From contig NZ_JAPNKE010000002.1 of NCBI RefSeq assembly GCF_026626665.1, forward strand, positions 3,565,168-3,629,167: DNA of 64,000 nucleotides. Reading direction: 5' to 3'. The DNA comes from Nannocystis pusilla (GTDB lineage: Bacteria; Myxococcota_A; Polyangia; Nannocystales; Nannocystaceae). The notes beneath the pieces were generated by a model, which had not been told where the DNA came from, ran no database searches, and worked only from the letters and a program-made list of their open reading frames with translations. The translations under genes were made by a program, and so were the position numbers. Shown here piece by piece: positions 1,112-58,122 of this stretch. Position 1 is the first letter of the stretch. Every line of letters begins with the position of its first letter.

Positions 1112-1853
1112 TCAGCGGCCCGACAGGAAGCCGAGGCGCTGGAACAGCGGCTCGGGGGTGTGGCGGACGACGAACAGGATCGGGCGCCAGTACCACGGGA
1201 CGAAGGCGACGACGGCCCGGCGGGCGATCGCGCGGTCGATGTCGCGAGCGGCGCGCTGCGGGGTGGCGAACAGGGCGTTCCTGGGGTGGCCGACGGTCAT
1301 GGGCGTGTCGACCGGGCCGAGCTTGAGCGTGGTGACGTTGACGCCCGCGGGGTAGAGGCGGCTGCGCAGGCCCTGCAGATAGACGTGCAGCGCCCCCTTG
1401 GCGGAGCCGTAGGTGTAGTTGCGCGGGCGGCCGCGCTCGCCGGCGACGGAGGTGATGACCGCGAGCGTGCCGCTGCGCTGGCGCTCGAGCACGCCCGCGA
1501 GCGGGACCAGGACTGCGATCACCGAGAGGAAGTTGACCTGGACGATGCGCGCGGCCTCGGCGACGTCGTGCTCGCTGCGCTGCTGATCGCCGAGGTCGCC
1601 GTGGGCGACGAGGACGACGTCGACCCGGCCACCGAGCGCGGCCACGGCCTCGTTCGCCAGCGCCTCCGCGCGCGAGGTCGGTGAAGTCCCCCGCCCCGGT
1701 GGTGACCTCGGCGCCGGCGCAGCGGGCGGCCACGGCCGCGAGCTTGTCGGCATGGCGGCCGACGAGGTGGAGCCGATCGCCGCGCGCGGCCCAGCGGGCG
1801 CTCACCTCGGCGGCGATGGCGGAGGTGGCCCCGAAGACGATGACGTGGCGCAT
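1112..1853 (-). CDS. Short-chain dehydrogenase/reductase (SDR), apparently frameshifted
   Basis: ORF 1112..1753 carries the SDR catalytic 'YTYGSAKGAL' (YxxxK) motif and an 'LVAHGD' NNAG-like motif. A classic Rossmann N-terminus 'MRHVIVFGATSAIAAEVS…LHLVGRHADKL…GDFTDL' is encoded in a different frame from the ATG at 1853. The frames meet in a (CG)n run at about 1665-1680. Confidence 0.6.
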
Positions 1854-2099
1854 CCGCGGAAGGTAGCGCGGCCCGGCCCGCGATGGCGAGAGGATGTTGG
1901 CGCCGCTGCCGGCGGCACGCGGCCGGCCGCGACCCCTGAGCCCCGTCCGCGCGCTCGGCCGAGGCGTCGCTCCGACGGCGCGCCGAGGCGCTCGGCCGTC
2001 GCCGCGCAGCCGGCTGACGCTCCGACATGACTTCATCGACATGTCTTCATGGACATGTTTTTTACGACATGTTCGAGCGAACCACCGGGAGCGAGCGCC

Positions 2100-55009: not shown

Positions 55010-55410
55010 AATATATGTCCTAATGGACATGCCCAAACAGACATATGTAAGGGTCGTCGAGGATCCACGTGGCATGTCCTTCGAGACAGGCGACCCTGCC
55101 GAGCAGAGCGCCGCGGAGTCACGGTCGCGGCGAAGGACTCCCTTCCCACGAGCCATCCACCGCCTCGCCCTGCGCCGCCCGCACCGTACTGCTGCATGTC
55201 CCGCAAGACGTGCTCATCGAGACGGCTCGTCACCGTCACCGCGCGCATGCATGTCCTTCAAGACATGCTCATCGAGACATCCCGCCGCCCGCCAATGCAT
55301 GTCCTTCAAGACATGCCCTTCGAGGCATCCTCATTCCCCCATGCATCCGTCTCGCCGCGCCCAGCCCGCATGTCCATCAGGACATGCCCCACGAGACATC
55401 CCCGCCCGCT
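55010..55410. repeat. Intergenic array of about 35 bp hairpin units GCATGTCCTTCAAGACATGC(C)CWTCGAGACATCCC (at least 7 copies)
   Basis: Units at about 55012, 55068, 55190, 55248, 55288, 55328 and 55368. Arms CATGTC/GACATG with a 5-7 nt spacer. Confidence 0.8.
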
Positions 55411-58122
55411 CACCCGATCTCGCCGCGGCGCGCCCGGCCGAACGCCACGCGTCGCAGCAGCAGATCGAGGATCAGCAGCGGCAGCGCCAGCGCCCACAGC
55501 ACCTCGGGCCACACCGCCCGCTGGCGCGTCCCCTGCGGCGCCCCGGGGTCGTCACGACCGCGTCGATCGGCCCCGAGTGCGAGCCGTCCGGCGCCAGCGT
55601 GGCCAGCCACGCCGGGTCGGCGCCCAGCTGATCGGGCGCCAGCTCGCTCGGGTACGGCACGCTCGCCTGCCCGGTCGCCTCGGCCACCAGGCGCGGCGGC
55701 GTCTGGCCGTCGTCGAACATCTGCGCCTTGATCAGCCGCTGGCCCGCGCGCACCCCGAGCACGGTCGCCTCGTAGCGGCCCGGCGCCGTCAGCTGGGCCG
55801 CCAGGGTCGTCGTGTGGCCCTCGGCGCCGGCGGGCAGCGACGGATCGATCACCTGCAGCTCGCCGCGCAGGTCGCTGACGAAGCCGGTGCTCGCGTCGAC
55901 GTCGACGACCGCGCGGAAGCTGCCCTCGTCGGCGCCGGGCGTGATCCGCAGCGACGCCCCACCGAGCGACGCGGCGCCCTGGCGCATCAGGTCGCGGGCC
56001 ACCTGCGACCAGAACTTGGGGAACCCGTCCCAGCCGATCCAGCGATGCGCCCAGCGCGGCTTGGCGTCGGACGCGAACGCGGCCGTGCGCCCGAGCCCGC
56101 GGCGGCCGCGGACCAGCAGCGGGTCGCCGACGTGCGTGCGCAGCAGCAATTCGGCCAGCGGCTTGGTCTTCAGCGGGATCACCCCGCCGAGCCCGGGCGC
56201 GCGGTCGAAGTCGATCCCGCGCAGCACCTGGGCGCTCTTGGCCACGCGCGCGAACAGGTCGCGCTCGACCACCGCGTTGCGCGTCACCTCGCGGGTCTCG
56301 CGGGAGAAGATCCGCGGCACGTCGGTGCCGTCCTGGCTGAAGTAATAGCGGCCGCGGCCGCGCTCCGCCACGCGGGCGAGGAAGTCCTTGCCCGCCCCCG
56401 CGCCGACGCCGACCGCCGACACCGTGATGTCGGCGTCGCGCATGTCGGTGATGAGCGCCGACACCCCGGCCTCCGGCGACTGTCCGTCGGACAGCAGGAT
56501 CACGTGCTTCACCAGCGCCTTGCTGCCCGCCAGCTGCATGTACGCCTCGCGCAGGGCCGGCAGCGCGTTGGTCCCGCCGCCCGCGCTGAGCCGACGAATG
56601 TCGCCGGCGATGCGGATACGGTTGGCCGCCGGCTGCAGGCGCACCAGAGTCACCGGCCGCGAGTCGAACGCGATCACCCCGATCTCGTCGCCCGGATCGA
56701 GCGTGCTGGCCGTCGAGCGAGCTGCCTCTTTGACCAGGTCGAGGCGGTCCTCGCTCGACATCGACCCGCTCTTGTCGATCACCAGCACCAGCGCCAGCGT
56801 CGGCTGCTCGCGCTGGCGCTCGCCCTCGAAGCGGACCGGCAGCACGTCCTCGAGCACGCTGCCGCCCCAGCCGCCGACCCCGAACGCGCTCTCGCCCCCG
56901 ATCATCACGAAGCCGCCGCCGTCCTGGACCCACTTCGCTATCGCCTGCTGCTGCGCCCCCGACACGTGGCGCGACGGCACGTCCGACAGGATCACCAGGT
57001 CGTACGGTTGTAGCCCCTCGGCCGCCGCCGGGATCGCCGAAGCCGCCTCCGCGTCGACTTGCAGGTGGTCGGCCCGCAGCGCCCGCGCCAGCGCCCCGAC
57101 GGATCGCCCTCGCCGACCAGCAGCACGCGCGGGCGCCCGCGGACCTCGCCGACGGTCGCCGCGCGGTCGTTGTCGAGGCTGCGGTTGTCGGCCGCGTCGA
57201 GCTCCGCCGCGTCGAGTCGGGCAGCGATCACAATCGGCCCCGGCGCGTTGGCGCGGACCGGCACCTTGATCTGCTGCGGCCCGCCGCGCAGCGTCACGTC
57301 GACGCTCGGCGACAGCGGGTTCGGCACCCCGTCCTTCTCGACGTACAGCTTGAGCGTGTGCGGCCCGCTGGCCCACACGTCGATCGCCGCGTCGAACGTC
57401 TGCCCCACGCGCAGCTCGCCCGGCAGGTGCACGCCCGCGACCAGCACGTCGCCGCGGGCCGCCGGCGCGGCGGTGCGGGTGTGCAGCGCGACCCCGCGGC
57501 GCCGCAGCCCCTCGGCCGCCGCGATCAGGTCGGTGCGCTCGGCCACGCTGGCGGCCCCGTCGCTGACCAGCACCACCCGGCCCTCGGTGTCCGGGTCGAG
57601 CAGCGCCTCGGCCAACCGCAGCGCTCCGGCGTGGTCGCTGGCCAGCCCGCCACCTGGCTCTCGGGACAGATCGATATCACCTGTCTCTTCGGACAGCGGC
57701 ACCGCCTGCGCCCGGCCGGCGTAGGTCACCAGGCGCAGCCGCGTGCGGTCGTCGCGGTCGCCGGTCTCGGCCTTCACCAGCCGGACCACCTCGCGGGCCA
57801 CCGCGGTGAACGCCTTCAGCTGGCCGTCGTCGACGCTCGCCGACACGTCGACCGCCACCACCACTGTCTTGCCGCGCCGCGGCGCCTCCAGGCTCGGGGC
57901 CGCCAGCGCCAGCGCCAGCGCCAGCAGCAGCAGCACGCGCGCCCCGAGCTGCAGCGCGACCTGCCAGGCCGGCAGGTCGACCAGCGAGCGGCGCGCGGCC
58001 GCGACGAGGAACGGCAGCAGCGCGACCGGCATGAGCCACAGCACGCTCGGCCGCGCCAGCACCAGAGTGCGGTCGCCGGCCTCGGACAGCCGGGCCGCCA
58101 GCCACTCGGGCAGGGTGAACAA
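55410..58122 (-). CDS. Large BatA/BatB-like membrane protein with two VWA (MIDAS) domains (multiple apparent frameshifts)
   Basis: N-terminus in ORF 56992..58122: two TM helices plus VWA (TVVVAVDVSASV). Middle in ORF 55472..57376: second VWA (LVLVIDKSGSMSSEDR…TNALPAL). C-terminal TM in ORF 55410..56933 (…WPEVLWALALPLLILDLLL). Confidence 0.5.

Follow-up and report, generated by a model that had tools for sequence, protein, structure and literature searches.

The window, a stretch of 64,000 nucleotides from Nannocystis pusilla (contig NZ_JAPNKE010000002.1, positions 3,565,168 to 3,629,167), holds about 46 genes, and the reading frame changes inside at least 16 of them within coding sequence that is otherwise intact. 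These genes encode a short-chain dehydrogenase (SDR), a Ser/Thr kinase with WD40 repeats (STPK-WD40), a WG-repeat protein, a secreted 358-aa protein, a GFA-family protein, a ParA-TPR protein, an HTTM protein, a major-vault-protein-like (MVP-like) protein, an ELFV dehydrogenase, a DUF937-OmpA protein, PtuB, PtuA, an FAD monooxygenase, an ALK_LTK_GRD protein, a 282-aa hypothetical protein, and a VWA protein. A preliminary description of the sequence had proposed at least 14 such genes, a number that this count exceeds, and the switches fall at or near the positions it listed.

Same-strand frame switches were placed by GC3-based segmentation at 1667, 8975, 13707, 16078, 23837, 33694, and 48252. 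Six of these seven lie within 17 bases of a junction proposed in the preliminary description, and 8975 lies about 25 bases from its junction at 8950. A Pfam domain search was run on translations joined over the frame switches. In the joined translations, adh_short crosses the junction at 1667, MVP_shoulder that at 31170, FAD_binding_3 both those at 47729 and 48252, ALK_LTK_GRD that at 53216, and CBP_BcsQ (E = 0.0011) that at 24560. WG repeats flank 13707 on both sides, as WD40 repeats do 8975. The segmentation also over-calls: its switches at 12760, 14359, 20326, 32951, 40352, 58942, 59256, and 61919 are normal gene boundaries and were rejected as frameshifts (ECF sigma / WG, WG / RsgA, DUF1592 / DUF1552, hyp207 / MVP, M16 / M16, genes A / B / C, and MMPL / DUF3261). 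Two hydrolase ORFs in one frame (50461-51741 and 51754-52737), parted by one stop, were considered as one gene with a nonsense mutation, and this was rejected since they are separate genes in relatives.

Bases missing from the window are bracketed below. The SDR gene (1111..1853, minus strand) lacks two bases of a (GC)n run at about 1667, CCTC[GG]CGCGCGCG; its orthologue in the same-species assembly JBMPIV01 is intact (247 aa), and the repaired protein agrees with it at 242 of 248 aligned positions when the stop codon is included. The STPK-WD40 gene (8552..12054, minus) lacks one base at 8977, CTGC[T]CTCG. The extra T is found in contig L084 of the independent read set ERR2215891, and five other genomes likewise have a base at this place. 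In the WG-repeat gene (12879..14365, plus), one base is deleted at 13714-13715, CCCC[G]CCGC. This G is carried by 5/5 relatives, and the repaired protein matches JBMPIV01 at 495 of 496 aligned positions, again counting the stop codon. The gene for the secreted protein (15736..16812, plus; 358 aa in JBMPIV01) lost one base of a C5 run at 16076-16077, leaving C4, and the identical deletion is seen in L102, a long-read assembly with fragmented genes. The GFA-family gene (22402..22823, plus) lacks one base at 22797-22799, CGCC[C/G]CCGG, that is present in ten related genomes. Deletions of one, two, and one base were found in the ParA/BcsQ-TPR gene (23150..24854, minus) at 23841-23845, 24251-24259, and 24573-24574, and a further 2-base deletion is possible near the stop, at 23160. 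The deletions in this gene are specific to the window in comparison with six genomes, and the intact orthologue has 569 aa. The HTTM membrane protein gene (25433..27876, minus) has a 1-base deletion at 26978-26980, and repair yields a full-length product of 814 aa plus stop.

The MVP-like (SPFH) gene (30354..32846, minus) has two error sites, both confirmed by ERR2215891 contig L087: a 2-base deletion with a substitution at 30761-30763, and AA to A at 31171. After repair, one stop was left, a TAG at 30761 that belongs to the complex site and reads CAG in ERR2215891. The repaired 831-aa protein is identical to ERR2215891 P0062, while the source annotation holds only a 563-aa fragment, MCY1006986. 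The same contig places two intergenic deletions between 33608 and 33617, (GC)5 to (GC)4 at 33608 and AAA to AA at 33617, and one base lost at 33699 (CCC to CC) in the ELFV (Glu/Leu/Phe/Val) dehydrogenase gene (33628..34649, plus). The repaired dehydrogenase (340 aa) matches P0056 exactly, and the source annotates a 321-aa truncation, MCY1006988. The DUF937-OmpA gene (37486..38807, plus) is a net 10 bases short at 38281-38296, within a Pro/Thr-rich CCCCGACC repeat. Since this stretch differs in length among species, the deficit may be partly real, with at least one base in error. A further intergenic deletion, C7 to C6 at 42977, is seen against contig L082. Next to it lies a strain-specific Septu island (43078..45270, minus) in which PtuA and PtuB (PADLOC E = 1.5e-114 and 2.7e-37) are broken by deletions. 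These are at 43241 (T6 to T5) and 43273 in ptuB, at 44156 (G4 to G3) and 44858 in ptuA, and at 45237 (AG) upstream of ptuA; L082 carries intact 466-aa and 208-aa Septu genes. The FAD-dependent monooxygenase gene (47378..48737, plus) lost single bases at 47728 (C4 to C3) and 48236 (C5 to C4) relative to contig L098. Its repaired product (453 aa) equals P0126 exactly, and the source annotates a 110-aa fragment, MCY1006999.

The glycine-rich ALK_LTK_GRD gene (52768..53767, minus) has a 2-base deletion at 53177-53181, and its orthologues in JBMPIV01 and RBIL2 are intact (333 aa). Compared with these same two genomes, the gene for the 282-aa hypothetical protein (54085..54933, minus) lost one base at 54382 (C6 to C5). 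The double-VWA / GATase1-like membrane protein gene (55410..58207, minus; orthologues of 933 and 941 aa) has three sites: one base at 55542-55545, supported by JBMPIV01 and RBIL2 only, and C5 to C4 at 57094 and A4 to A2 at 58121, confirmed by ERR2215891 contig L090. The remaining losses relative to L090 are intergenic. In a 58-bp tandem array (60204..60511), the T runs and a (CG)n run have lost bases at 60313 (CG), 60342 (T7 to T6), 60400 (T8 to T6), and 60454 (T6 to T5), and two C6 to C5 deletions follow at 60787 and 61194.

Most junctions of the preliminary description agree with these sites. Those it set at about 1670 in a cg run (SDR), 33690 in a CCC run (dehydrogenase), and 48235 in a C4 run (FAD monooxygenase) lie at or near the deletions described, and those at about 16085 (secreted protein) and 23850 (ParA-TPR) are close to both the segmentation switches and the deletions. 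The position of the WG junction (13715) was correct, but the C7 run in which it was placed is itself the product of the error, the true sequence being CCCCGCC with its G lost. The STPK-WD40 junction had been misplaced in a ccgccacc run at 8950 rather than at 8977. Three genes had been described as spread over three frames each; this is the case for the FAD monooxygenase and VWA genes, but the ParA-TPR gene is in four pieces and two main frames.

Up to ten Nannocystis genomes were compared per site, with one genome at site 1667. Against these genomes, each junction is a deletion of 1-2 bases specific to the window, apart from the one net 10-base deletion. All the affected genes are called as single, full-length genes in JBMPIV01, and so are their orthologues in RBIL2; therefore, the frame switches exceed chance. 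The genes are also intact wherever covered in CP185339, RBIL2, ILAH1, N. exedens, N. punicea, N. bainbridge, and N. radixulma. Assembly JBMEQO01 (L102) was considered as a second assembly of the same strain and rejected, since an identity of about 96% makes it a different strain; it too has fragmented genes.

The preliminary description had looked to independent accurate reads to decide whether the indels are genuine. The nearest available set, ERR2215891, contradicts them at 22/22 covered events, none of which is reproduced in its contigs. Five of these contigs cover 24,360 bases of the window, and over this length the window has 22 deletion events (28 bases), no insertions, and five substitutions. 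ERR2215891 appears to consist of accurate reads from the same strain, judging from a divergence of 0.02% in substitutions and from the Septu island and the indels that the two have in common. The latter are two real intergenic indels, at 7085 and 7134, by which the window and ERR2215891 differ from five other genomes. Thirteen coding sites lie outside the coverage of these reads and were judged from other strains only (1667, 13714, 16076, 22797, 23160, 23841, 24251, 24573, 26978, 38281, 53177, 54382, and 55542). In an exact look-up in ERR2215891, seven proteins were not found (WG, SDR, GFA, ALK_LTK_GRD, DUF937-OmpA, HTTM, and the intact hyp190), with an alternative start also tried for two of them. 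These misses lend no positive support, but they could stem from breaks between contigs, from another start codon, or from a wrongly guessed inserted base. The window's RsgA and DUF1552 proteins likewise had no exact match in the look-up, likely because of a different called start or contig breaks, and ERR2215891 is thus not applicable to the sites at 1667, 13714, 16076, and in the ParA-TPR gene.

Eleven frameshifted genes were repaired by only adding back the missing bases, except that the MVP-like TAG was changed to CAG by hand. After this correction, none of the eleven contained an internal stop. In gapless alignments, ten of the repaired proteins were identical to their JBMPIV01 orthologues at 96-99.8% of positions, on either side of the junctions. 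The eleventh, STPK-WD40, was outside the gapless scoring because its internal repeat copy number varies between strains. Three repaired proteins, the ELFV dehydrogenase, the MVP-like protein, and the FAD monooxygenase, are present in ERR2215891 residue for residue.

The probability of losing a base climbs steeply with homopolymer length. Comparing the window with ERR2215891, a base was lost in 2/14,341 runs of length 1, 2/3,642 of length 2, 2/639 of length 3 (0.3%), 3/157 of length 4 (1.9%), and 2/32 of length 5 (6%). At lengths 6, 7, and 8 the counts were 4/6, 2/2, and 1/1, or 7/9 together. The overall rate is about 0.9 deleted sites per kb in the window, roughly Q30. The localized junctions had been described as lying in short C/G homopolymers or dinucleotide runs; this holds for about two-thirds of the verified deletions (runs of at least 3 or dinucleotide repeats), and about one-third fall outside them. 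The latter include single bases lost beside C or G runs and in non-repetitive contexts such as CTGC[T]CTC, CTCG[A]GGC, and CCCC[G]CC.

The proteins of the window match N. pusilla OV079_ proteins (MCY10069xx-MCY10070xx) exactly. From the species name and the accession range, the OV079_ assembly is most likely that of strain Na p29T, ASM2662666v1. Its accession numbers share their range with RBIL2, ILAH1, and SCPEA4, whose genomes come from the same study (PMC10435759). N. pusilla Na p29T was sequenced on a MinION Flongle R9.4.1 only, with Guppy 6.0.1, Flye 2.9, and two rounds each of Racon and Medaka, and the assembly was made without short-read polishing (PMC10435759). In homopolymers and short repeats, R9.4.1 basecalling and consensus count too few bases, and at times they lose a base beside a run. 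In a gene-dense genome of 73% GC, nearly all such deletions land in coding regions and shift the frame. High GC also keeps the wrong frames free of stops, which is why a homologous protein seems to hop from frame to frame. The frameshifts are almost certainly consensus errors of a Nanopore-only assembly, absent from the organism. Uncorrected long-read error was also the leading interpretation of the preliminary description, and the independent reads, the deletion-only signature, the repair test, and the relatives all agree with it.

The errors outside homopolymers could have a more specific source. Substitutions or deletions occur at 4/4 WAATTC sites compared with 0/5 CAATTC sites, a suggestive pattern in a sample of nine sites, and errors are also found at TTCGAA and next to CAGCTG and CTCGAG. 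The WAATTC and TTCGAA errors may be due to methylation or to k-mers scarce in a genome of 73% GC. A TCGA methylation motif was rejected: with 286 sites in 24.4 kb, it is too common for five nearby events to count as enrichment. An extended reading is that the non-homopolymer errors mark a DNA-modification motif of N. pusilla that misleads R9.4.1 basecalling and, separately, that a few of the unverified indels (ParA-TPR, DUF937-OmpA) are real. We consider this doubtful. If there were such a motif, the errors would indirectly reveal the specificity of an active methyltransferase.

A mixture, in which most indels are errors and a few outside the ERR2215891 coverage are real, is distinctly unlikely. 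The DUF937-OmpA deficit and one of the four ParA-TPR events would be the candidates. The variation of the DUF937-OmpA repeat between species fits such a mixture, and the indels at 7085 and 7134 demonstrate that genuine strain-specific intergenic indels exist. However, all the coding sites that could be checked with ERR2215891 proved to be errors, and the net 10-base change fits one error on top of a real repeat difference of 9 bases.

In genuine mass pseudogenization, the strain would truly carry the frameshifts and a third of its genes would be inactive, the extraordinary pseudogene load that the preliminary description gave as its alternative. The indels are indeed present in the deposited sequence, and the source annotation holds truncated proteins, such as MCY1006986, MCY1006988, and MCY1006999. 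This reading is nevertheless refuted at every site covered by ERR2215891, where the apparently same strain is intact (22/22), and is very unlikely at sites outside that coverage. Taken as a whole, its probability is minimal. Deletions outnumber insertions 22:0, and apart from the TAG at 30761-30763, the affected genes showed neither nonsense mutations nor large deletions nor insertion elements. Protein conservation downstream of the frameshifts equals that upstream, as in the 495/496 aligned positions of the WG protein, and the rate would imply roughly 10,000 frameshifts per 12-Mb genome. Biological recoding can practically be set aside, whether as programmed ribosomal frameshifting, as transcriptional slippage, or as phase variation in simple-sequence tracts. 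Slippage is conceivable in the homopolymers of 5-8 bases found at some sites, but many sites are not of a slippery kind (CTGC[T]CTC, CTCG[A]GGC), and typical contingency loci have far longer tracts. Independent reads show the in-frame tract length, and there is no conserved recoding signal, since every relative covering a given site has an orthologue that is in frame in its DNA.

Consensus error is an ordinary explanation; the importance of the result is that of a data-quality warning only. About 0.9 deletions per kb would give roughly 10,000 false frameshifts over the 11.95-Mb assembly, and about a third of the window's genes are truncated or split in the deposited sequence. The Septu genes ptuA and ptuB, the vault-protein homologue, and the VWA protein are broken as deposited and intact in the independent reads. 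Analyses of gene content, pseudogenes, biosynthetic clusters, and defense systems in the OV079_ genome will be distorted. This genome seems to be that of the type strain (Na p29T), which served in delineating the species of the genus (PMC10435759), and polishing it with the existing short reads would be worthwhile.

Two known systems can be compared with the window. High pseudogene loads arise by reductive evolution, as in Mycobacterium leprae and recent host-restricted pathogens. The window resembles the M. leprae type in that frameshifts interrupt many of its genes as deposited. In contrast to that type, it has no signature of nonsense mutations, deletions, or insertion elements and no decay downstream of the frameshifts, N. 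pusilla, a myxobacterium, is free-living and has a genome of 12 Mb, and independent reads contradict the indels. The other system is the homopolymer and short-repeat error of ONT R9.4.1 sequencing. The window differs from it in that about one-third of the verified events lie outside runs of at least 3. It shares with it indels that are all deletions, a steep rise with run length, a rate of about 1 per kb, and genes that look frameshifted or truncated in the annotation, and the Na p29T pipeline is of exactly this type.

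The GC content of the window is 73%, which produces long open reading frames (ORFs) in all six frames; therefore, ORFs alone were not trusted for gene calls. The whole window was segmented by codon-position GC content with a Viterbi algorithm, which yielded 23 same-strand frame switches. Proteins were translated over each switch, joined, and scanned against Pfam. Single domains ran uninterrupted past several junctions: adh_short (profile positions 2-188) past 1667, MVP_shoulder (2-118) past 31170, FAD_binding_3 (5-314) past both 47729 and 48252, and ALK_LTK_GRD (11-197) past 53216. 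A weak CBP_BcsQ match spanned 24560, and WG repeats and WD40 repeats flanked 13707 and 8975, respectively, on both sides. Since domains and repeats continue past the junctions, the frame jumps that the preliminary description saw in at least 14 genes stand, with its coordinates accurate to about 25 bases; we found 16 of about 46 genes to be frameshifted. Some switches were rejected as normal gene boundaries (ECF sigma/WG-repeat, WG-repeat/RsgA, DUF1592/DUF1552, M16/M16, and MMPL/DUF3261), as were those among three small genes at 58.4-60.2 kb, which are separate genes in all relatives.

Syntenic DNA was compared over nearly the whole window with the N. pusilla strain JBMPIV01 (about 97.5% identical to the window), the complete N. 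pusilla genome CP185339, the Nannocystis strains RBIL2 and ILAH1, and four other Nannocystis species. A search with the MVP-like gene assigned the window to Nannocystis, at 94.8% identity to RBIL2 and 82-90% to four other species. None of the affected genes is split in any compared genome; each is one full-length gene there: SDR (247 aa), STPK-WD40 (about 1130 aa), WG-repeat (495 aa), a secreted protein (358 aa), GFA (140 aa), ParA-TPR (569 aa), HTTM (814 aa), MVP-like (831 aa), ELFV dehydrogenase (340 aa), DUF937-OmpA (443 aa), FAD monooxygenase (444 aa), ALK_LTK_GRD (333 aa), a hypothetical protein (282 aa), and VWA (933-941 aa). At the junctions, the window is short of 1 or 2 bases present in every relative covering that site, and all net frameshifting differences within coding regions are deletions in the window.

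Gene fragmentation is also seen in L102 (GCA_049060185.1, JBMEQO010000002.1), another N. pusilla strain (about 96% identical, 12.69-Mb contig). There, the STPK-WD40 gene is split into four pieces, several proteins are truncated, and the C5 to C4 deletion of the window at 16076 recurs. The fragmentation and this common deletion suggest that L102 is a second under-polished long-read assembly. Two other segments look like ordinary strain-level presence/absence differences: one of about 500 bp with a GNAT acetyltransferase gene (21812-22366), present in the window, CP185339, and L102 and absent from RBIL2, ILAH1, and JBMPIV01, and a window-specific one of 301 bp (22838-23138).

The preliminary description had proposed a check against independent reads. 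The closest comparison run used the independent public run ERR2215891, from which contigs were chosen for proteins identical to those of the window; five of them (L084, L087, L082, L098, and L090) cover 24,360 window bases. Over these bases there were 5 substitutions and 22 indel events, and ERR2215891 contradicts the window at 22 of 22 of the latter. All are bases absent from the window (28 in total), with no insertions. The covered sites include listed junctions at 8977 (STPK-WD40), 33699 (dehydrogenase), and 48236 (FAD monooxygenase), as well as 47728, 30763 and 31171 (MVP-like), and 57094 and 58121 (VWA). Substitution divergence from the window was 0.02%, compared to 2.5% for another strain of the species. 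ERR2215891 also has the window's 2.2-kb strain-specific island, which JBMPIV01 does not, and it agrees with the window at two intergenic indels (7085 and 7134) that distinguish the window from five other genomes. This agreement means that ERR2215891 does not merely "correct" all window-specific indels. As judged by sequence, the low divergence, the common island, and the two common indels indicate that both come from the same strain.

Eleven frameshifted genes were repaired by inserting only the missing bases. Each gave a full-length ORF; one in-frame TAG was left in the MVP-like gene, at a complex error site, and was replaced by hand. In gap-free comparisons with JBMPIV01 orthologues, ten repaired proteins matched at 96-99.8% of positions on either side of the junctions (WG-repeat, 495/496; FAD monooxygenase, 442/445; MVP-like, 827/832). 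Repaired STPK-WD40 could not be scored in this way since its internal repeat copy number varies among strains. Its linker (10293-10670) has tandem repeats of 84, 78, and 36 bp, encoding, for example, DRSDAHRREVVLASGAG, with in-frame insertions of 36, 72, and 6 bp in the window compared to JBMPIV01. Among the proteins called on ERR2215891 contigs, three are identical over their full length to repaired ones: P0056 (ELFV dehydrogenase, 340 aa), P0062 (MVP-like, 831 aa), and P0126 (FAD monooxygenase, 453 aa). The source annotation has only fragments of these three, of 321, 563, and 110 aa, respectively.

Base loss depended on run length. Compared to the true sequence, a base was lost in 2/14,341 runs of length 1, 2/3,642 of length 2, 2/639 of length 3, 3/157 of length 4, 2/32 of length 5, 4/6 of length 6, 2/2 of length 7, and 1/1 of length 8, and the dinucleotide repeats (GC)5, (CG)4, and (AG)3 were short by a unit. 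Such run-length-dependent loss is known behavior of R9.4.1 consensus sequence. Many junctions do lie in homopolymer or dinucleotide runs, as first described, but some fall outside repeats, such as CTGC[T]CTC, CTCG[A]GGC, and CCCC[G]CC (lost base in brackets). Loss of the G from the last of these created the "C7 run" reported at 13715. The verified rate, 22 deletions in 24.4 kb (0.9 per kb), corresponds to roughly Q30 with substitutions included and extrapolates to about 55-60 such errors in the window and about 10,000 in the genome. The few substitution-type discrepancies with ERR2215891 (8562-8563, 31171, 40724, 43026, and 43241) cluster at WAATTC and TTCGAA sites, with 4/4 WAATTC and 0/5 CAATTC sites affected; in this small sample of 9 sites, R9.4.1 basecalling may have been misled by a methylation motif or by an AT-rich k-mer that is rare.

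Exact protein look-ups matched the window's intact proteins to MCY1006960 to MCY1007010 (locus tags OV079_), annotated as Nannocystis pusilla on one contig of 11,948,136 bp. Their accession range and naming connect them to the batch of genomes that Ahearne et al. deposited (PMC10435759), and we infer that the window is part of the Na p29T assembly, ASM2662666v1. For this genome, the paper describes Oxford Nanopore sequencing on a Flongle R9.4.1, a Flye assembly, and no correction beyond Racon x2 and Medaka x2; PacBio was used for the new isolates of that study (Ahearne et al., PMC10435759).

The frameshifts are thus an assembly artefact without biological content. The preferred first reading, uncorrected long-read indel errors, was correct given the deletions-only pattern, the run-length dependence, and the intact genes in ERR2215891. 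Its alternative, mass pseudogenisation, was not borne out: real pseudogenisation would need reproducible indels, and those of the window were absent from ERR2215891 at every covered event. Nonsense mutations, larger deletions, and downstream decay, which are normal for pseudogenes, were not seen in these genes apart from the error-site TAG in the MVP-like gene, and we consider this explanation very improbable. Programmed frameshifting or phase variation is less probable still and can be set aside, since the DNA of all relatives keeps the reading frame and many of the sites lack a slippery sequence. Slight doubt attaches to 13 coding sites compared with other strains only, chiefly in the Pro/Thr repeat of DUF937-OmpA, where a net 10-base deficit is most simply read as one error on top of a genuine length difference of 9 bases. 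The value of the finding is a caution on this type-strain genome only.

An intergenic tandem array (60204-60511; 58-bp unit, 5.4 copies, 76% match) has a 306-aa gene on one side and, on the other, a gene for a small secreted protein. Three units contain a GAGAGA(C/T)A(C)-T6-8-CGACGG motif, and several assembly deletions are located in its T runs. The strain-specific island (43078-45270; L082 145-2168) has 64.7% GC, compared to 73% for the window. It carries the genes of a Septu anti-phage system, PtuA (466 aa, PADLOC E = 1.5e-114) and the HNH-like PtuB (208 aa, E = 2.7e-37). ERR2215891 has intact copies of both, but four deletions disrupt them in the window, so defense-system scans of this assembly would probably miss or mis-call Septu. 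The 831-aa product of the MVP-like gene (30354-32846) is homologous to the eukaryotic major vault protein and has Vault_3 and MVP_shoulder/SPFH domains. Its relatives, at 64-99% protein identity, come from across Nannocystis and from metagenome-assembled genomes that are labelled Myxococcota, Bacteroidota (Cytophagales/Microscillaceae), Sericytochromatia, and Riflebacteria; though widely spread, the bacterial homologue of the major vault protein is probably already known.
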